DNA of 64,000 nucleotides from Candidatus Kaiserbacteria bacterium (GCA_028286865.1 JAQBQU010000010.1:6143-70142); one strand, 5' to 3'. Positions 44,457 to 52,744 are shown, counted from the stretch's first letter. Numbers and translations: made by a program. Notes: a model not told the origin generated them from the letters alone.

Positions 44457-45515
44457 TTATAACGCAATTGCCGCGCTCGCCGCCTCCGAGGAGCTTGGCA
44501 CCCGCGGGAGGGCGCTCTGGTCGTAGACGAGCATTAGTACAACGACACCCACGAGCACAAAGCCGCCGGTCAGCACTTCCATGTATACGAATCGCTTTCG
44601 CGCATGTACGGCAAGCGTTATCAAGAGGATCATGAGGAAGAAACCGATCAGTGCCGAGAGCAGATACAGTATGAAATGCGTCGGTGAGGTGACGGCTACC
44701 GCGACGCGAGCGGGCGCCGGAGCGCTGTGTGCCGTCGTCTGTTCGGAAGCGACGGTGGTGACCGGGGCGGCAGCCGTCTTTACAGCCTTGACCGCTGTCA
44801 CGGGTTTCTTGGGAGGAACGGTCTCAGACCCCAGAACAGCCGCCTTGGGATTCACGGTCGTAGCGAGAGCGGTCGCAGGCACAGTTGCGACAGACGCATT
44901 CGAAACGACGGCCGCAGCGGCAGCTGACGAGTCTTCTGCACGCGTCGCGAAGAACTGCACCACGAAGGTGGTCTCTTTACCCTGATACATTCCCTGAGCG
45001 ATGCCGATGCCGATGCGCGTATATTGTGCCTTGAGAATATTGGCCCGATGCATCGGCGAATTCATCCATGCGGTTTCTACGTCTTGAGAATCGGTGAAAT
45101 CCACCGCGAGGTTCTCCCCCGCGTACGAATACGGATACTTCACCGAATCGAACCAGTACCACGGGGTCTTGCCGTCGGGAGAAACGTGCGAGAAATACCC
45201 CTTGGCCGCCATGTCGTTTGCCTTTGCCTGCGCCGCTTGAGCCAGAAGCGGGTCTTCGGTGAGCGATGAGAGCCCTTGAGAACTGCGGTCGGCATTGGTC
45301 AGGCTCGTAATGGCTGCGGGGAGCACCGCCGCGAGAAAGCCATTGTTCTTGAGGACGACGTGTATCTGGATGAGGTATATCCCTTCGATGAGCAGGAGGC
45401 ATAAGACCAAAGCTCCGACCGATTGCCTGCTGAAGATCTGCGGCTTGTAGCGATTGCGCCGATGCGGTATGAGATATCGCTTGAGGGACCTCAGTAACTG
45501 CTTCATTTCATCCAT
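44457..45515 (-). CDS. Membrane-anchored CAP/SCP (YkwD-like) domain protein
   Basis: ORF 44457-45665. The ATG at 45515 clears the upstream gene. The CAP pattern is AQAKANDMAAKGYFSHVSPDG...GENLA...WMNSPMHRANIL. It has a TM helix before the domain and TM helices after it. Confidence 0.75.
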   Translation of the reverse strand: MDEMKQLLRSLKRYLIPHRRNRYKPQIFSRQSVGALVLCLLLIEGIYLIQIHVVLKNNGFLAAVLPAAITSLTNADRSSQGLSSLTEDPLLAQAAQAKANDMAAKGYFSHVSPDGKTPWYWFDSVKYPYSYAGENLAVDFTDSQDVETAWMNSPMHRANILKAQYTRIGIGIAQGMYQGKETTFVVQFFATRAEDSSAAAAAVVSNASVATVPATALATTVNPKAAVLGSETVPPKKPVTAVKAVKTAAAPVTTVASEQTTAHSAPAPARVAVAVTSPTHFILYLLSALIGFFLMILLITLAVHARKRFVYMEVLTGGFVLVGVVVLMLVYDQSALPRVPSSSEAASAAIAL

Positions 45516-45529
45516 AATACACCACCATA

Positions 45530-45561
45530 AAACAACAACCCCGCTTTCGCGGGGTTGTTGT
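45530..45561 (-). terminator. Intrinsic terminator after the 913-aa gene
   Basis: Minus strand: ACAACAACCCCGC-GAAA-GCGGGGUUGUUGU followed by UUUAUGG. Confidence 0.7.
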
Positions 45562-45582: not shown

Positions 45583-48324
45583 TTAGTGACCTGCAGCGGC
45601 CTTCGCTGCGATGATCGCTGCAAGCTGGGCCTGAAGGGCCTGAAGCTGGGCAGTGAGGCTCGCAATGAGGGCTGCGCGCTGTGCGTCGGTCATGACCGGG
45701 GTCACCGTAGCGTTTACCACTGCGCGCGTGAGCGGGCCGAAGTATCCTACTGACGGCTTGATGCCATGAGCTGACTGGTACGCGGCGACAGCTGCACGTG
45801 TCTGGACACCGAAGTATCCGTACGTGGCCGTGCCGTTCGTAAGGGCCGGTATCGAGAAGCCTTGCGCGATGAGGAACTTCTGGAGTTCTATCACCTGCGT
45901 GCCGGTCGAGCCGATCGTGAGATCAGTCGTGAAGTTGAAGGTACTGGCACCGAGGACCTGACCACCGGTCGAGCCGCCTACGGAACCCGTAGTGCCGCCC
46001 GTCGTTCCGGTAGTGCCACCAGTCGTGCCTGTTGTTGCGCCGGTAAGCGGAGCGGTACCGGTCGATCCTGCGATCGGTCCGTTGCCTCCACCACCACCCC
46101 CTCCGTTGTTAGATACAGTAGCTGCAGTTTCGGTATAGAGAGTGAAGACCGTGAAGTGTTTCGTCCAGACGACGAGATCGCCGCCCACGTCCATTTTACA
46201 ATCGGCTCCTGCAGCGAGACTGCTGTCTTCTGCGGTCTGATCATTTGCTGAACACGTAGCGGTTATCGTCGTGAACGCTCCTCCCGGAGCTTTCCAACCG
46301 ATGAGCTTGCCCGCCTGACCCGAGAACGTGAGCTTCGCTGCGCGAGAAAGCGTCAGCTTGCTCTGCGTCGAACCGATCTCCACTGAATAGACGGAAGATG
46401 TGACCGTGGAGTTGCTCGACGGAGTGACACCTTGAGTCGTTACGAAGTGTACCGGTTCAAGAGTCCCGTCCCAATTCGAGTCACCAGTGATCACCGTGTT
46501 CGGTGCGATCGATTCACTGACGGTGCTGCCGTTGGCGTTGGTTGCGCTCGAAGTAGTCGTCGCGCTGCCGGTGCTTGATGCAACTCCCGAGAACTGAAGG
46601 GTCGTCTTCGCGAAGTCCGTGTACCACGGAGAGTACGAGACGTTGCCATCTATTGTGCTGCCTGTTGCGCTCGTGCTTGATGCCGTCTTAGGACCTGAGG
46701 CGCTTCCCCAGTAGTTCTTTGTTGCGTCTACAGCAGCTGTCGTTGTGCCGTTTCCGTTCTGTGCAGTAACTCCCACCGGAACGTTCACAAAGTCGTTCTC
46801 ATGTATCGAAGCGTTTGATGCGTTCGATTCGAAGCTTACGCCTGTGTTGGTCTCGTGTACGTTGTTATCGTTGACTGTCGCAGAAGAGGTGTCGCCGGGA
46901 GCATAGAACGACCCGACGGTGACTGCTGTGTCATCGCTATAAATCTCATTGTTGTGGACGTTGGCAGAAGACGCCGAGCCATTTGCAGTGCCATCGAACG
47001 AGGTCACAATGACCGCCGTCGAAGACCATGTCGGCGTCGTGCCAGTTGTCAGAGCGTTGTGAAGGACGTTACCGTAGACCTCTACATTAGAACCGGTCCA
47101 GATAGTAACGAGGTTTTGTACTCGGCCGGTACCGTCGACGTTGTCGCCGATGATATCGCTGGCGAAGATGGAGCCTGTCGAGGTGCTGAAGCGAATGCCT
47201 CGCTTGTGGAAGCTTGAGATCGCTACATTGTGCACATTGGCGGTACTACCGCTTACATCGATACCGTTCTCTGCGGAAGCACCCGTGGATGCTACGGCAA
47301 GGTTCTCGATGGTAACTCCGGTCGCTCCGTTTACTTTAATGACGTAATTGGCATTCGTAGATGTTCCGGTGATCATCGTTGGCGTAGTTGTCGCGCCGGC
47401 ACCGTTGAGTGTAAGTGCCTTTGAGATGAGCACGCTTTCCGGATAGGTGCCTGCCGCGACGGTTACGGTGCCGCCCGCTGCAACGGCATCAACTGCCGAC
47501 TGAATGGTGGAATAGCACGGTGTTTGCCCTGCACATGTATTGTCTGTTCCGTTTACATATGCGGCGGTCGGTGCCGGTGTCGGATCGAAGTCGAATGTTG
47601 TTGTGGTGGATCCTGTTATGCCGACGGTGAGATTGTCGACGTTACCATCGAACGCTTCGCCATCTGCACCGTTCGTACGAAGAATGAGCTGCCCGGGAGC
47701 GCGCATTGCGATATTTGGGTAGGAGGCAAGAACCTCCGCCCACGTGCAGGGATCAGCCTGGGTACAGACGCTCGAGACCGCTCCGTTGAGAGTTGCGTGA
47801 GAGAACCACCAATTTCCAGTGCTGGTACTACTTGCTGCTGCTCCGGTAAGGGTGTCCCATGTTTGCCAAGAGCCCGTGTTCACTGTCTGAGTGAAGTATG
47901 GTTCGTAGGTCAAACGGCCTTCGTATGAGGTGATGCCGTCGGTACTGTTGCTGTCGACATCGAAGCCGAGCGACGGGACCTGGGCCGACGTGCCGCTCGC
48001 GCGATACGTGGAAAACGAGAGCGCCGTGATGCTACTGAGTGATGTGGATGCGAACTGCGAAGTAGCGATACCGTATTTGTCGGTCGTCGCTTTTGTGAGA
48101 TGCACGCTTCCGCTTCCGACGGGCGGTGTGCCCGGACCGGTAACGAAACCATGAGCTGCAGTATCGGTCTGGACGGTGTCTGTCTGATCATTATAGAGAT
48201 ACCAGCCGTTGAGACTCGCCGGCGTGACGACTGTCGCCGCGGATGCGATCCCCGCGAACGAAAAAGCCGCCGTCATGATGACCGCGCTGATAATCGAACC
48301 CTTCAATATATTCTTACTATTCAT
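45583..48324 (-). CDS. Giant secreted surface protein, paralog A (beta-helix core, Gly/Thr linker, PG-binding domain, coiled-coil tail)
   Basis: 913 aa with a signal peptide MNSKNILKGSIISAVIMTAAFSFAGIASA and a parallel beta-helix-like repeat region. It then has GGGGGGGNGP...TTGGTTGTTGG, a PG_binding_1-like segment (TQVIELQKFLIAQGF...YGYFGVQTRAAVAAYQSAHG), and ends LQALQAQLAAIIAAKAAAGH. Confidence 0.8.
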   Translation of the reverse strand: MNSKNILKGSIISAVIMTAAFSFAGIASAATVVTPASLNGWYLYNDQTDTVQTDTAAHGFVTGPGTPPVGSGSVHLTKATTDKYGIATSQFASTSLSSITALSFSTYRASGTSAQVPSLGFDVDSNSTDGITSYEGRLTYEPYFTQTVNTGSWQTWDTLTGAAASSTSTGNWWFSHATLNGAVSSVCTQADPCTWAEVLASYPNIAMRAPGQLILRTNGADGEAFDGNVDNLTVGITGSTTTTFDFDPTPAPTAAYVNGTDNTCAGQTPCYSTIQSAVDAVAAGGTVTVAAGTYPESVLISKALTLNGAGATTTPTMITGTSTNANYVIKVNGATGVTIENLAVASTGASAENGIDVSGSTANVHNVAISSFHKRGIRFSTSTGSIFASDIIGDNVDGTGRVQNLVTIWTGSNVEVYGNVLHNALTTGTTPTWSSTAVIVTSFDGTANGSASSANVHNNEIYSDDTAVTVGSFYAPGDTSSATVNDNNVHETNTGVSFESNASNASIHENDFVNVPVGVTAQNGNGTTTAAVDATKNYWGSASGPKTASSTSATGSTIDGNVSYSPWYTDFAKTTLQFSGVASSTGSATTTSSATNANGSTVSESIAPNTVITGDSNWDGTLEPVHFVTTQGVTPSSNSTVTSSVYSVEIGSTQSKLTLSRAAKLTFSGQAGKLIGWKAPGGAFTTITATCSANDQTAEDSSLAAGADCKMDVGGDLVVWTKHFTVFTLYTETAATVSNNGGGGGGGNGPIAGSTGTAPLTGATTGTTGGTTGTTGGTTGSVGGSTGGQVLGASTFNFTTDLTIGSTGTQVIELQKFLIAQGFSIPALTNGTATYGYFGVQTRAAVAAYQSAHGIKPSVGYFGPLTRAVVNATVTPVMTDAQRAALIASLTAQLQALQAQLAAIIAAKAAAGH

Positions 48325-48504
48325 ATGCTGCTTACTATTTGATAAATACTAATAATCCAAGCTCTCCCCTTTGATCAAAGATCATTCGTCTTTTCTCTTG
48401 AAGTTCTGCTTATGTCGTCTCTATACTTAGTGACGCTGGCAGTACTATTACATTACGTTCATGTACGTGAGATGAACGGTTTTCTTCACCTGGCGTTCAT
48501 AAAC

Positions 48505-48530
48505 AAAAGCCCCGCTTACGCGGGGCTTTT
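48505..48530 (-). terminator. Intrinsic terminator after the 942-aa gene
   Basis: AAAAGCCCCGC-TTAC-GCGGGGCTTTT. Confidence 0.7.
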
Positions 48531-48552
48531 GCAATTCTTTCGAGTGAAAGGA

Positions 48553-51381
48553 TTAGTGGGTCGCTGCCTTAGCTGCGATCAATGCTGCAAGCTGAGCCTG
48601 GAGCGTTGTGAGCTGAGCCGTGAGGCTCGCAACAAGCGCTGTGCGCTGTGCGTCAGTCATGGTCGTTGTCGTGCCGGCATTGAGTGCCGCACGAGTAAGC
48701 GGTCCGACAGTTCCTGTCTGAGAGATGCCGTGAGCCTTCTGCCACATCTTCACTGCCGAAGCCGTGAGAGAGCCATAGAAGCCTGTCGTCGAGGAGATCT
48801 TGAGATATCCCGCGTCGATGAGGATCTGCTGGAGAGCATTCACATCAGCACCCTTCGATCCGATCGTGAGATTGGTCGTGAAGTTGTATGTGCTTGCACC
48901 GAGAACCTGTCCGCCGTTGCCGGTCGAGACTGTTCCGGTAGTTCCTCCGGTCGTACCTGTAGTAGCGCCGGTAAGTGGAGCTGTGCCGGTCGATCCTGCG
49001 ACCGGTCCGTTACCACCACCTCCGCCTCCACCTCCGCCTGAGGAAACAGATGCTGCTGTTTCAGTGTAGACAGAGAAGACAGTGAAGTGCTTGGTCCAGA
49101 CGACGAGGTCGCCTGCTACGTCAGCCTTACAGTCAGCACCTGCTGCGAGATTCGCGTTTGCAGTTGCCTGATCGGTCACGCCGATGCTTGAGCAGGAGGT
49201 CGTGATCGGAGTTGTTAGGCCGTTGAACGACCATGCGATGAGCTTACCTGCTTGTCCTACGAATGTGAGCTTCGCAGCATTGGAGAGAGTGAGCTGGCTG
49301 GTAGGTGATCCTACTTCGATCGAGAGAACTGTTGAGGTCTGAGTGCTGTTGCTTGATGGTGGAACACCCTGCGTCGTTACAACAGTTACCGGCTCGATCG
49401 TTCCGTCCCAGGTATTGCTACCCGTTACGGTCGTGTTCGCAGGAACATCAGCCGTTACGGTAGTGCCGTTCGAGGTCGTAGAGCTGTCCGTGTTTGAAGA
49501 GCCGGTCGTTGCTGTCGTTGATGATGGGCTTGGCGATGTGGTCGTAAAGCCGAGACCCGTCATTGCCGCATCGCTGTACCAAGGAGAAACATTTATAACT
49601 GAACCCGAGATATTTGCCGCAGTTGGACCCGTGGTGTTCCCCCAGTAGTTATCGTCTGCCTTGAACGTGCCTGTCATGCCGGACTTGATCTTCAAGATCA
49701 CCTGATCAGTCGCCATGCTGAGGAACTTGTTCTGGTGCATGTCGACCGTGGAGCCGGTGAAATCTGGCTGATTGACCCAGGTGGTCGCACCGATAGCAGA
49801 GTAATACGTAGCACCAGTTGCATCGGACCAGATCTTATTGCCGGTGAACGTGTTGTTGTTCACTGCAACAGTCCAATTGCTGCCGAAGCTATCGAACGTT
49901 ACGCCTGAATTTGTGAACAAGTTGTTCGTAACGGTTCCTGTTCGCGCTGCCGTAGCACTATTGTTGTTGAAGTAGACACCGGAGCCGTACTTGCTGATGT
50001 CGTTGCCGGTCGAGCCATCCGGGTCAGAGTAGTTAGCAGCTGATGGAAGAATGCTTACTGGGATCGGAGCAAATTCGTTGTACTGAGCGGTAAAGTTATT
50101 GCCGAGCACTTCGATGCCCTTGTTCGGTGAAAGCTTGTTCATGACGCGAAGACCCTTGATCGTCACATTATCCGCAAAGACGGTGATGAGATTCTGGGTC
50201 GCCCATGCACCGTTTGCCGTCGGCTGTGTGCTGTAGATGTTAGCCGCGACATTCGCAGCGTCTGTGATCGGTGTCCCAGCAGCATCAACGCCCTGGAGCG
50301 TTACGCCGTTCTTGGTCAGAGCCAAATACCAACCGGTCTGTCCTTCGAGAACAGTCGTGTCATCTTTTACAAGATTGTAATTGCCCGGATATACCTTCAC
50401 GGTACCGTTTGCAGCAACTGCTTTCACAGCTGCCTCAAGGGTAGTGAATGCATCAACGCCAACGGTGTGGCCATCGGTTGTGGACGCGCCGATCGTCGAT
50501 GAGTAGGAACCGTTAACATAGACGGTCGCAGGAGCGACGGTCGTGGAGTTAGAGATTGAGAAATTGTCGAAGAGGAAACCGTTGCCAGTTACGCCGGTAG
50601 CGGAGTTCGAGCGGATGATGAGTGTCTTTACGATGCGTGGAGACTGTTCCGCACTGGCTTCGGCGTCGTAGCGGTAATAGTTCTCCCAGGAAGTCCCCGT
50701 CTTTTTAAGTACACCATCAATGAAGACCTGAACAACATCGTTAGACGCGCCGTCTACGGTATCAAGAGTCATCTTGATCGTGTGTGTTCCACGGTCGATC
50801 GTCGCAATATCGTTCATGTTGAACGTCGCGACGGTTGGCAATGGTCCGGCATCAGTTACATCGGAAAAGATGACATGTATGCCGTCTGCCTGATCTTCAA
50901 AGCGGAGGTAGCTCATGCGTGAACCGTCGCCGCGATCTGGAGATACAGAAAGAGTGAGACCGGATTGTACGGTTGGAAGTGTAGAGGCGATATCGAACTG
51001 TGCTTCAAAATGATTTGTTTTCGTGCCTACCGCAAAGGCCGCTGCTGTAGCCGATGTTTCCCCGACTGAGTCCGAGATAGGAGCAGCGAATATCTGGTCA
51101 CCGAATCCGCCGGTGCCGAATTCATTAGATACACGAAGTGCGATGCCGCGAACTCCTGAGCCAAGTGGTGATGCCGCGGCAAAACCGTACGTGCTTGAGT
51201 CAACAATGGCCTGATCATTTGAACCGGATGTCCAATTTTGCTGACCGTTTACAGAACCAGCGCTAAAGCTTTCGAAGTCCGCTGTCGAAGTGCTTGCCGA
51301 AGCAATACCTGCGAACGCGAAAACTGCGGTCATGACGACTGCGCTGATAATCGAACCCTTCAATACATTCTTACTATTCAT
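48553..51381 (-). CDS. Giant secreted surface protein, paralog B
   Basis: 942 aa. Its signal peptide is MNSKNVLKGSIISAVVMTAVFAFAGIASA, identical to paralog A at 25 of 29 positions. The C-terminal module matches paralog A (HFTVFSVYTETAA...GGGGGGGGGNGP...PG-binding...LQAQLAALIAAKAATH). The central roughly 600 aa differ. Confidence 0.8.
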   Translation of the reverse strand: MNSKNVLKGSIISAVVMTAVFAFAGIASASTSTADFESFSAGSVNGQQNWTSGSNDQAIVDSSTYGFAAASPLGSGVRGIALRVSNEFGTGGFGDQIFAAPISDSVGETSATAAAFAVGTKTNHFEAQFDIASTLPTVQSGLTLSVSPDRGDGSRMSYLRFEDQADGIHVIFSDVTDAGPLPTVATFNMNDIATIDRGTHTIKMTLDTVDGASNDVVQVFIDGVLKKTGTSWENYYRYDAEASAEQSPRIVKTLIIRSNSATGVTGNGFLFDNFSISNSTTVAPATVYVNGSYSSTIGASTTDGHTVGVDAFTTLEAAVKAVAANGTVKVYPGNYNLVKDDTTVLEGQTGWYLALTKNGVTLQGVDAAGTPITDAANVAANIYSTQPTANGAWATQNLITVFADNVTIKGLRVMNKLSPNKGIEVLGNNFTAQYNEFAPIPVSILPSAANYSDPDGSTGNDISKYGSGVYFNNNSATAARTGTVTNNLFTNSGVTFDSFGSNWTVAVNNNTFTGNKIWSDATGATYYSAIGATTWVNQPDFTGSTVDMHQNKFLSMATDQVILKIKSGMTGTFKADDNYWGNTTGPTAANISGSVINVSPWYSDAAMTGLGFTTTSPSPSSTTATTGSSNTDSSTTSNGTTVTADVPANTTVTGSNTWDGTIEPVTVVTTQGVPPSSNSTQTSTVLSIEVGSPTSQLTLSNAAKLTFVGQAGKLIAWSFNGLTTPITTSCSSIGVTDQATANANLAAGADCKADVAGDLVVWTKHFTVFSVYTETAASVSSGGGGGGGGGNGPVAGSTGTAPLTGATTGTTGGTTGTVSTGNGGQVLGASTYNFTTNLTIGSKGADVNALQQILIDAGYLKISSTTGFYGSLTASAVKMWQKAHGISQTGTVGPLTRAALNAGTTTTMTDAQRTALVASLTAQLTTLQAQLAALIAAKAATH

Positions 51382-51562
51382 AATTCTTCTACTTTTCTAC
51401 TAAAACTTGATAAATAATTAAACGAGGGACATTCCCAAGTTGGAGGGTCTACAGTATTCCTTTACGCCGAAAGCGCAACTTTTTTGCTACGGCGAAGATC
51501 GGATGATGAACAGATGAATATGTGCAAACGATGGCTCATCGGCTCAGCGCCTTCACTTGACC

Positions 51563-51775: not shown

Positions 51776-52744
51776 TTACGCTGATCGGCGCGAAAGAATG
51801 TATGCGGATCCGGCGACGGCAAGCAATGCAGATAGTGCGAGGACGAGCGTATTTTCAGAAGCATGTCCCCCGCTGCCGGTATTGGGTGTCTTTGGATCTG
51901 CGATCGATGTCGTTACGGCTGGTGGAACAACAGGCAGGACCACAACAGGAGGAACTACCGGCGGCACCACTACCGGAGGTACCACTGGGGGGACAACAAC
52001 AGGCGGGACCACGGGAGGAACGACCGGCACGCATGAAGCAGGTGCCGATATCGTATCGTCCACATTGGTGGATACGATCCCGCTCGGGAGGAATACGCCG
52101 CCGGTCACTGCGACATTGGTGCGGATATCGAGGCGCGTCGTACCGATGATAGTTCCCGCGAATTTTGAATTTTCTCCGAGGGTCGAGGTGATGGCATTAT
52201 CAACCGGCGTCCAGAAGACGTCGCATGCTGATGCTCCGCTAGAGAGCGTGACGACCGAGCTTGATGCGGTCACGAGCGAGCGATTCAAGCGGAAGATGTA
52301 TGTTCCGCTTCCGCTGAGGGTGATCCCTGCCGTTCCTATCGTGACGCTCGGTGAGATCGACGGCACGCAGTACACGCCCGGCGTGTAGACGCCGAGGGCA
52401 CCGTGCAGTGTGTCAGTGGAGAGATCTACGGCGCCCGCAGGGAACGTGAATGTGCAGGGCTGAGTGTTCAGGGCAGTAAGTGCAGTATTGATATCGCTGA
52501 TAGCGGTCGTGAATGGTGCGCCTGACCCATAATTGGTGTGAGTACCCGACGGAATGACGGCCGGCCCCGTGATGAATCCGATATCCCCATTGACCGTTGT
52601 TCCCGGTACCGGATTATTGTATGTGCCGGCAAGGATACCGTACGTGGCGGCCGCTCCGTACGCGGGTGTGGTAGCTGCGGAGGCGGTAAAGGGGGCGAGG
52701 GCAAGTATCGAGAGGGTAAGCGCGGCGATGCTTCGTGATCTCAT
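51776..52744 (-). CDS. DUF3494 (ice-binding-like) surface protein with a Pro/Val repeat stalk and a sortase-like sorting signal
   Basis: 322 aa with a signal peptide. The N-terminal YGILAGT...GTTVNGDIGFITGPAV is typical of DUF3494. A (PVVPPVV)n stalk follows, then KTPNTGS, a hydrophobic helix and an RRSA tail. Confidence 0.7.
   Translation of the reverse strand: MRSRSIAALTLSILALAPFTASAATTPAYGAAATYGILAGTYNNPVPGTTVNGDIGFITGPAVIPSGTHTNYGSGAPFTTAISDINTALTALNTQPCTFTFPAGAVDLSTDTLHGALGVYTPGVYCVPSISPSVTIGTAGITLSGSGTYIFRLNRSLVTASSSVVTLSSGASACDVFWTPVDNAITSTLGENSKFAGTIIGTTRLDIRTNVAVTGGVFLPSGIVSTNVDDTISAPASCVPVVPPVVPPVVVPPVVPPVVVPPVVPPVVVLPVVPPAVTTSIADPKTPNTGSGGHASENTLVLALSALLAVAGSAYILSRRSA

Follow-up and report, generated by a model that had tools for sequence, protein, structure and literature searches.

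The genomes of bacteria of the candidate phyla radiation (CPR; Patescibacteria) are tiny, and a lifestyle of attachment to other cells is generally assumed for them. To our knowledge, their surface proteins are almost all annotated as 'hypothetical' or 'peptidoglycan-binding' only. Here, we analyse two neighbouring genes for large predicted surface proteins in a stretch of 64,000 nt from Candidatus Kaiserbacteria bacterium (GCA_028286865.1, JAQBQU010000010.1:6143-70142), hereafter the window. Gene A (protein P0001; 45583-48324) and gene B (P0002; 48553-51381) are arranged head-to-tail on the minus strand as complete open reading frames (ORFs) of 913 and 942 aa, and all domains given below are encoded on that strand. 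A preliminary description of the locus had proposed a cassette layout, in which a common export and wall-anchor scaffold carries alternative heads and the shared flanks serve recombinational shuffling.

Sliding comparison and BLASTP resolve the pair into blocks whose boundaries fall on domain borders. Amino-acid identity between A and B is 83% in the signal peptide (25 of 29 positions, as first described, with four differing), 25-35% in the cores (BLASTP), 63-86% in a module of 150 aa that we read as a MAIN domain, about 97% in a Gly/Thr linker, 32-51% in PG_binding_1 and 75-83% in a C-terminal helix. Similarity between the N-terminal domains (A30-250 against B30-285) was not detectable (hhalign probability 16%). 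The central 600 aa or so had been said to differ, which holds in part: these N-terminal domains are unrelated, and both cores are beta-helices. The common C-terminal block is real but longer than the 230 aa first assigned to it: it starts near A598/B638, about 315 aa before the end, and with its uneven identity is a mosaic in itself. At the DNA level the common blocks are 60-86% identical, and the longest exact match between the two genes is 25 nt.

Both proteins start with a Sec-type signal peptide (aa 1-29; A 48238-48324, ending ...AGIASA, read by eye from the translation; B 51295-51381, read by eye from the sequence), with Lys in the n-region, a hydrophobic core and ASA|A. Its DNA is 85% identical between A and B over 86 nt, and the same type of signal peptide is found in P0021 and P0074, two proteins of other organisms, at 60-80% identity. 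The head of A (aa 30-250; 47575-48237) belongs to an uncharacterised beta-sandwich family, possibly carbohydrate-binding, and is 65-68% identical to domains of P0062, P0064, P0067, P0068, P0070 and P0073. It found nothing in Pfam, NCBIfam or a profile search of PDB sequences; its structure neighbours in the ESM Atlas are PEP-CTERM/IPTL-CTERM exoproteins (TM 0.73-0.80), the PEP-CTERM ones stand-alone, and there is a separate lead to CBM_4_9. The head of B (aa 30-285; 50527-51294) is LamG/concanavalin-like by homology and structure leads and shares 45-62% identity with domains of some 20 proteins that differ in their other parts. Pfam and NCBIfam gave nothing usable for it, the profile search against PDB sequences a weak match to the neurexin-1 LNS domain (E 0.53), and the Atlas leads to Sialidase-like_CBM and polysaccharide-lyase-like folds, with a best structural neighbour at TM 0.90. 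Both head families are uncatalogued beta-sandwiches, found in many secreted proteins that have little else in common, and their fold leads suggest units that bind or modify glycans.

Behind each head lies a right-handed beta-helix. The core of B (aa 286-620; 49522-50526) was modelled by AlphaFold2 (AF2) with a predicted local distance difference test (pLDDT) score of 80 and strands in a rung-like pattern, and Foldseek matched it to pectin methylesterase 2nsp (E 1.4e-4), PL6 alginate lyases, RbmB and Pel9A, with a probability of 1.00 for pectin methylesterases, PL6 lyases and Pel9A at a TM of about 0.4. Profile searches added weak matches to phage tail-fibre or tailspike proteins and pectinesterase. 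The core has the parallel beta-helix fold of pectin-lyase-like proteins and is 67-68% identical to the core of P0003. The core of A (aa 255-585; 46570-47562) is homologous to that of B and matches the NosD family in NCBIfam (E 3.5e-14, below the cut-off) and, weakly, in Pfam; its nearest relative is P0065 (54%). Structure prediction and Foldseek on the central domain of B bear out the early impression of a beta-helix-like region in B and, by homology, of one behind a different N-terminal domain in A. PF22842, which is annotated in many of the homologues and was at first suspected as the conserved module, is Pel9A-like_beta_helix and has no match in this genome.

Between core and linker lies the conserved module (A, aa 586-735, 46120-46569, A4 profile E 4.6e-59; B, aa 627-777, 49051-49503, from the AF2 model and its structural matches). 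No Pfam or NCBIfam model covers it, so genome annotation currently misses it, and a profile search of PDB sequences returned nothing. Modelled by AF2 with 112 homologues, it forms a beta-sandwich (pLDDT 90.9). In an exhaustive structural search with VIA-align against 48,161 PDB representatives, the best 12 matches were all ZU5 or GAIN domains (Z 8.7-5.3, alignments spanning 112-128 residues), among them ankyrin ZU5 (Z 8.7, 8.4 and 8.0), CD97 (7.3), BAI3 (6.3), UNC5b (6.2) and GPR56 (5.3); the FIIND domains of CARD8 (5.0) and NLRP1 (3.8) followed below the best 12. Foldseek pointed to the same ZU5/GAIN families, weakly. Folds of this group are the classic ones for self-cleavage. The module thus has the GAIN_B/ZU5-like fold of MAIN proteins, with moderate Z values and a homogeneous match list.

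A short motif in this fold marks the predicted self-cleavage site, H723-F724|T725 in A (46150-46158) and H765-F766|T767 in B (49081-49089). Across the 112 homologues, His is present in 112/112, the next residue is F in 104, A in 5 and L in 3, and the one after it is T in 79 and S in 33, that is, S/T in 112/112. T-2 is also invariant in the module alignment (112/112) and two Cys are nearly so, at a mean column identity of just 34%. In the model, HF closes strand 149-157 and Thr precedes the last strand, 159-167. The aligned part of the model, residues 1-157, has the Phe of HFT as its last residue and corresponds to the N-terminal fragments of GPR56 (238-382) and NLRP1 (1100-1212). GPR56 is cleaved at H381-L382/T383 (PMC13123842) and NLRP1 between F1212 and S1213 (PMC9700037); L382 and F1212 are the P1 residues, so the module Phe stands at the equivalent cleavage position. 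The string HFTVF had been listed in the preliminary description as part of the shared end; its reader missed the predicted autoproteolysis site in it, the most informative feature of these proteins.

MAIN (Microbial Autoproteolysis INducing) domains of Bacillota with the motif HFS cleave between F and S, after which the fragments stay associated, and the proteins are ordered as signal peptide, adhesion or enzyme domains, MAIN and wall anchor; the survey in that preprint covered RefSeq Select and does not mention CPR (Patescibacteria) (Brogan & Rudner, bioRxiv 2026, doi 10.64898/2026.05.12.724683). For bacterial surface proteins of large size that contain adhesion and glycohydrolase domains, Zhang et al. 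2012 (PMC3482391) had earlier predicted processing by the ZU5 superfamily. Our A4 profile matches Bacilli proteins at E 1e-13 to 1e-19 and Paenibacillus/Clostridia proteins at E of about 1e-47, and its matches in Bacilli, Paenibacillus, Syntrophomonas and Peptococcaceae have an HF[ST] motif, a Gly-rich linker and SLH anchors. A and B have the MAIN architecture as well, with a signal peptide (read from sequence), adhesion- or enzyme-like domains, the module and a surface anchor. By fold, motif and layout, the module is predicted to be a MAIN-type domain, with a putative, indirect link through these profile matches to YfkN, the MAIN protein of B. subtilis. Such modules may also occur in pairs. 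In a Paenibacillus silviterrae protein of 730 aa (L097 3188-5380), which contains one cadherin-like and three SLH domains, the module covers about aa 271-407 and is directly followed by a borderline Pfam ZU5 match (E 3.3e-4) at aa 414-491, possibly a tandem pair of self-cleaving domains; two modules are present in P0149 and in one Bacilli protein (L114).

Several points weigh against this assignment. Neither Pfam ZU5 (PF00791) nor GPS (PF01825) matched A or B (module searched to E 10; also genome-wide), and ankyrin ZU5 domains take the first three places in the structural search, for which Z values of 7-9 are only moderate. Ankyrin ZU5 domains are not known to self-cleave. The invariance of HX(S/T) may be somewhat inflated because the motif alignment contains strong matches only; cleavage at F724|T725 of A and F766|T767 of B is a prediction for these proteins; and the evidence for a glycan-binding or enzymatic role of the heads consists of fold leads. 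The ankyrin matches and the lack of Pfam hits would both suit a module that is a non-cleaving, ZU5-like spacer, in which case the proteins would stay single wall-bound chains. Set against such a spacer are the His and Ser/Thr at the exact HX(S/T) positions in 112/112 while the middle residue varies between F, A and L, the cleavage of tested Bacillota MAIN domains with the same motif and layout, and the place of the motif in the turn that leads into the final strand, where GAIN and FIIND have it too. We consider the spacer quite improbable.

Downstream of the MAIN module follow the parts that would hold the proteins at the wall. The poly-Gly and Gly/Thr-rich linker (A, aa 736-795, 45940-46119; B, aa 778-830, 48892-49050, from translation and sliding comparison) reaches its identity of about 97% over its core, and a Gly run behind the module is common throughout the family. 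The peptidoglycan (PG)-binding domain first noted in the shared end is matched by Pfam PF01471 in both proteins, above its cut-off of 23 bits: PG_binding_1 spans aa 796-872 in A (45709-45939; E 1.1e-10, 42 bits) and aa 831-902 in B (48676-48891; E 2.2e-14, 53.8 bits), and would anchor the proteins on peptidoglycan, as far as domain homology indicates. Each chain ends in an amphipathic helix (A, aa 873-913, 45586-45708, with heptad-like Leu spacing; B, aa 903-942, 48556-48675, from translation and sliding comparison), and similar tails are present in P0007, P0021, P0066, P0074, P0132 and P0157. A complex prediction for the helices (A862-913 and B892-942) scored 0.04, which gives no call either way.

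Conserved ends around differing middles are what an active cassette or antigenic-variation system would produce, with the shared ends as recombination sites for head exchange, either within the population or out of silent copies. Such a system would also fit relatives at loci with the same neighbour genes, which have other heads within the same signal peptide and scaffold, as well as the incongruent domain trees described below, which indicate exchange at some time, and the raised codon identity in the signal-peptide coding region. However, further full, partial or silent copies of signal peptide, module and tail, sought throughout the genome (871 kb in 21 contigs, about 90% complete), were limited to A and B themselves, so the silent or partial donor copies of programmed cassette systems are lacking. 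Also lacking are the long near-identical flanks or inverted repeats and the recombinase of such systems: the shared blocks have just the DNA identity and the 25-nt longest match given above (72-85% identity in the comparison for long flanks), a search for inverted repeats gave nothing of note, and none of nine neighbouring ORFs scanned with Pfam, two of which had no Pfam match, was recognised as a recombinase gene. Both genes look complete, each with a terminator of its own. Uniform divergence, which had been named as telling against shuffling, applies in part: amino-acid identity is blockwise, but synonymous sites are near saturation along the full length. Codon identity between A and B is no higher than in pairs from different organisms, and at identical residues it scarcely exceeds a random level (in MAIN, 40 observed against 34-35 expected).

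No recombinant A/B form was seen in the source soil metagenome, of which the contigs alone were examined. Among sequencing runs, this metagenome alone contains the stretch, in contig form, and no RNA run is listed with it. A single candidate joint (46108 to 49012) was rejected as a recombinant: it has a 22-letter side, lies on another organism's contig and falls within the Gly/Thr linker. With no copies beyond A and B in the genome, synonymous sites close to saturation and so short a longest stretch of shared DNA, an active cassette system is unsupported. The intragenomic version of the proposal is largely refuted, and shuffling through shared flanks as first proposed, together with the additional or silent copies that it led one to look for, is not borne out; we regard it as extremely improbable. 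Of the recombination signal that was sought, ancient exchange is visible in domain trees, and recent recombinants in the source contigs are not.

The signal-peptide coding region stands apart. Its first 15 or so codons are near-identical DNA with the core TTGAAGGGTTCGATTATCAGCGC in four genes from three organisms, namely in the window (48280-48324 and 51337-51381), at L016 2869-2913 and at L018 4424-4468, and the neighbour proteins there are only 63-70% identical. Codon identity in this region is 1.6-2x the expectation in all six pairs (6/6) of the four genes. This could reflect a constraint at the mRNA level or a recombination arm. Metagenome scans for the coding motif, one exact and one back-translated, gave 0 matches each.

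Evidence for older exchange comes from the relatives of each domain. The head of B is 63% identical to that of P0003, and between these two proteins identity is 21% in the signal peptide, 49% in MAIN and 51% at the C-terminus, against 83%, 63% and 67% between B and A. The MAIN tree unites A, B and P0066 in one clade (support 100/98), and a clade of B with P0003 is rejected by the approximately unbiased (AU) test (p = 6.5e-5). In the core tree, a 100/100 branch separates the core of A from that of B, which belong to two deeply split subfamilies. In the PG tree, A falls in a 96/97 clade with P0021, P0074, P0066 and P0157 that excludes B, and an A+B clade is rejected (AU p = 0.013); the PG domain of B has its nearest relatives not in A but in P0020 and in further large proteins of this genome. 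P0021 and P0074 have an A/B-type signal peptide and C-terminal scaffold but different heads, and the arrangement of module, linker and PG_binding_1 recurs in proteins that range from 270 to 3138 aa and have highly dissimilar heads, in keeping with the common export and wall-anchor scaffold with alternative heads that had been proposed. The domain trees are mutually incongruent; hence, heads and anchors were exchanged over evolutionary time, and the locus is a clean case of domain-level mosaic evolution. We also noted, at other places in this genome (G000), a separate family of large ORFs of 1016-1348 aa with two N-terminal PG_binding_1 domains and no MAIN (C14:50226-54272, C20:19089-23102, C20:29725-33768 and C20:33768-36818), to whose PG domains that of B is closer than to that of A.

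A simpler history would make A and B mere tandem duplicates with all divergence in situ, the ends being kept by stronger constraint and no domain being exchanged. The near-saturated synonymous sites over the whole length, the coincidence of identity boundaries with domain borders and the fact that the cores still align at 25-35% are all compatible with it. It does not account for N-terminal domains that come from unrelated families and are each 50-68% identical to domains of other proteins, for a B whose head resembles P0003 while its MAIN groups with A, for cores on either side of a 100/100 branch, or for PG domains that are not sisters. In-place divergence without domain exchange is rejected on the present trees, and we hold it to be very improbable. 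The pair itself is old, given the absence of extra copies, the DNA identity of 60-86% and the near-chance codon identity; on these sequence comparisons A and B are old tandem paralogues.

Taken with the direct observations of domain anatomy, fold, motif invariance, incongruent domain trees and lack of extra copies, the probable explanation is that A and B are old tandem paralogues encoding members of an extensive class of modular proteins that are secreted and tethered to the envelope, in which the heads sit on a predicted self-cleaving MAIN tether, and that they are not part of programmed switching. From these observations we infer cleavage, wall binding, a glycan target and participation of the proteins in attachment or detachment. 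Both proteins would be exported through the Sec signal peptide and display a lectin-like beta-sandwich and a right-handed beta-helix, together a head that may bind or modify glycans. The tether would consist of the MAIN domain, the flexible Gly/Thr linker, PG_binding_1 holding peptidoglycan and the short C-terminal helix. MAIN is predicted to cut itself between Phe and Thr of H-F-T via an N-O acyl shift, and the last beta-strand (TVF.[LV]YTE) would remain inserted in the beta-sandwich after the cut, so that a head of about 700 aa is held non-covalently on a wall-bound stub. The stub of about 180 aa (last strand, linker, PG_binding_1 and helix) would bind the wall, and force or unfolding could release the head, which comprises the lectin-like domain, the beta-helix and most of MAIN. 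Given the order of signal peptide, lectin-like head, beta-helix, MAIN, Gly/Thr linker, PG_binding_1 and helix, we read the proteins as releasable wall-tethered adhesins or glycan-acting enzymes.

On this explanation, the ends would be conserved through purifying selection on the export and tether modules, and the middles would differ through ancient domain-level recombination, which placed new heads and, in B, another PG-binding domain on the same scaffold. Recognition of the MAIN tether thereby explains the contrast between conserved ends and differing middles, and gives A, B and hundreds of CPR and DPANN relatives a concrete predicted mechanism of wall display with protease-free release. It also carries the MAIN finding beyond Bacillota, adding the candidate phyla radiation as a lineage and PG_binding_1 as an anchor, neither of which is discussed in the preprint. 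A more speculative extension, which we place on the unlikely side, is that MAIN-tethered lectin/beta-helix proteins of CPR and DPANN, as ultra-small episymbionts, are force-releasable adhesins or depolymerases for host attachment and detachment, whose conserved ends act as homology arms for head replacement between strains. If that were true, the locus would be a horizontally diversifying host-range determinant.

The flanks of the two genes share further short elements. The 9-mer ATTTATCAA lies 15 nt upstream of the start codon of A (48339-48347) and 25 nt upstream of that of B (51407-51415), and eight copies were found genome-wide against about 3.2 expected (approximately 2.5-fold over-represented). 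It is absent upstream of the related genes for P0074 and P0021 in two other organisms; with this absence and the modest over-representation, it is weak evidence for a conserved element. The element first described in the 5' untranslated regions is thus present before both genes, although not established as regulatory. A perfect 12-bp palindrome, CTTTGATCAAAG, lies at 48369-48380, 45-56 nt upstream of the start codon of A; it occurs once in the window and not upstream of B. As first described, each gene has its own intrinsic-terminator-like, GC-rich hairpin with a T-run 3' of it, at 45532-45561 after A (minus strand) and at 48504-48531 after B (minus strand; the hairpin is palindromic and the scan gave the plus strand). 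The two hairpins (45540-45555 and 48510-48525) have a common core, CCCCGCG(A/T)AAGCGGGG; this 16-mer pattern has only three occurrences in the genome, the third in G000 C13 near 110268.

The pair is flanked by two more genes on the minus strand. Upstream lies an Ice_binding-like gene (PF11999, E 4e-21; 51776-52744), 64.5% identical to a gene upstream of P0021 in L018, and downstream a CAP/SCP-domain gene (Pfam CAP E 1.4e-18; 44457-45514, with the start at 45514 inferred), whose synteny extends to L016, L017 and L018 at 63-70% identity. The CAP gene directly follows the gene for P0074, and at the P0021 locus, which has both the CAP gene and the Ice_binding-like gene, it is nearby but not adjacent. 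Homologues of the neighbours at 63-70% identity lie with the related MAIN-scaffold genes of two other organisms, at L016 6189-7295 and at L018 997-1830 and 2870-3745. This suggests that Ice_binding-like, CAP and MAIN-scaffold genes form a conserved surface-protein gene cluster. Ice_binding is also used as a head on MAIN proteins themselves, in P0014 and the archaeal L036. In the genus-level relatives G065 and G015, the conserved glutamate dehydrogenase gene is the only one shared at this locus, and the four-gene surface cluster is missing beside it. Among 60 other genomes of the genus searched, two have the module (G003 with two copies and G073 with one), which makes it rare there. Both module genes of G003 (L012, contig C106; L015, contig C75) are broken at contig ends, consistent with assembly collapse on the shared scaffold, so that tandem pairs may be under-counted in fragmented metagenome-assembled genomes (MAGs).

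Beyond the genus, a search of 1.84 billion representatives returned the module in 1428 clusters at 50% identity. The proteins have 270-3138 aa, usually with the module 150-350 residues ahead of the C-terminus, and in 97 of 164 fetched members PG_binding_1 follows it. The motif pattern yielded 472 relatives across 185,579 species genomes, and the best 80 of the 472 are mostly from Patescibacteria and DPANN archaea, with a few from Bacillota and Chloroflexota; MAGs of Kaiserbacteria and further Patescibacteria are among the nearest relatives of the module. The module subfamily thus seems to be most abundant in CPR bacteria and DPANN archaea. Eight DPANN MAG loci (L036, L050, L055, L059, L060, L065, L082 and L098), from Woesearchaeota, Micrarchaeia, Pacearchaeota and others, have the module with the exact string WTKHFT. 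The archaeal modules sit behind beta-helix, Ice_binding or PKD heads, with 130-270 residues after the motif and no PG_binding_1, and several members have Cys-rich motifs (C..W.C..W..C) after the module.

Surface proteins of Gram-positive bacteria with YSIRK signal peptides and LPXTG anchors likewise have conserved export and anchor ends around variable, modular and recombining middles. In contrast to them, A and B have another signal peptide motif and no sortase signal, and their attachment would be non-covalent through PG_binding_1. Self-cleavage of envelope proteins with fragments that stay associated is also known from CwpV of Clostridioides difficile. SEAL domains provide a further case of self-cleaving envelope proteins whose fragments remain non-covalently bound (PMC10556640). 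The SEA-like fold of SEAL and the CwpV-specific domain differ from the module of A and B in fold and sequence motif; the likeness lies in enzyme-independent self-cleavage, which is predicted in A and B. The ZU5 and FIIND domains of PIDD, NLRP1 and CARD8 belong to the group that gave the best structural matches (Z up to 8.7) and have an HF|S-type site at the end of the ZU5 sandwich, but they are cytosolic death-fold signalling or toxin-release domains, unlike A and B, which Pfam ZU5 misses. Surface proteins and polymorphic toxins of bacteria also contain ZU5 autopeptidases, as noted by Zhang et al. 2012 (PMC3482391). The GAIN domains of adhesion G-protein-coupled receptors (GPCRs) and polycystin-1, with the GPS motif HL|T/S, are similar in the fold of their B subdomain (Z 5.3-7.3), hold the motif at the same structural place and, as in A and B, carry adhesion domains N-terminal of the cleavage domain. 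Unlike adhesion GPCRs, A and B have no helical GAIN_A subdomain, seven-transmembrane receptor, tethered-agonist signalling or Pfam GPS match. With MAIN proteins such as B. subtilis YfkN, A and B have in common the GAIN_B-like beta-sandwich and, in the turn that precedes the final strand, the H-hydrophobic-S/T motif, which reads HFS in YfkN and HFT in A and B. They differ in their host, a CPR genome from a group that goes unmentioned in the MAIN preprint, and in their anchor, PG_binding_1 and a C-terminal helix compared with sortase LPXTG or SLH in the known MAIN proteins. The domain order is the same, and both sets comprise large proteins with lectin and glycan-acting domains.

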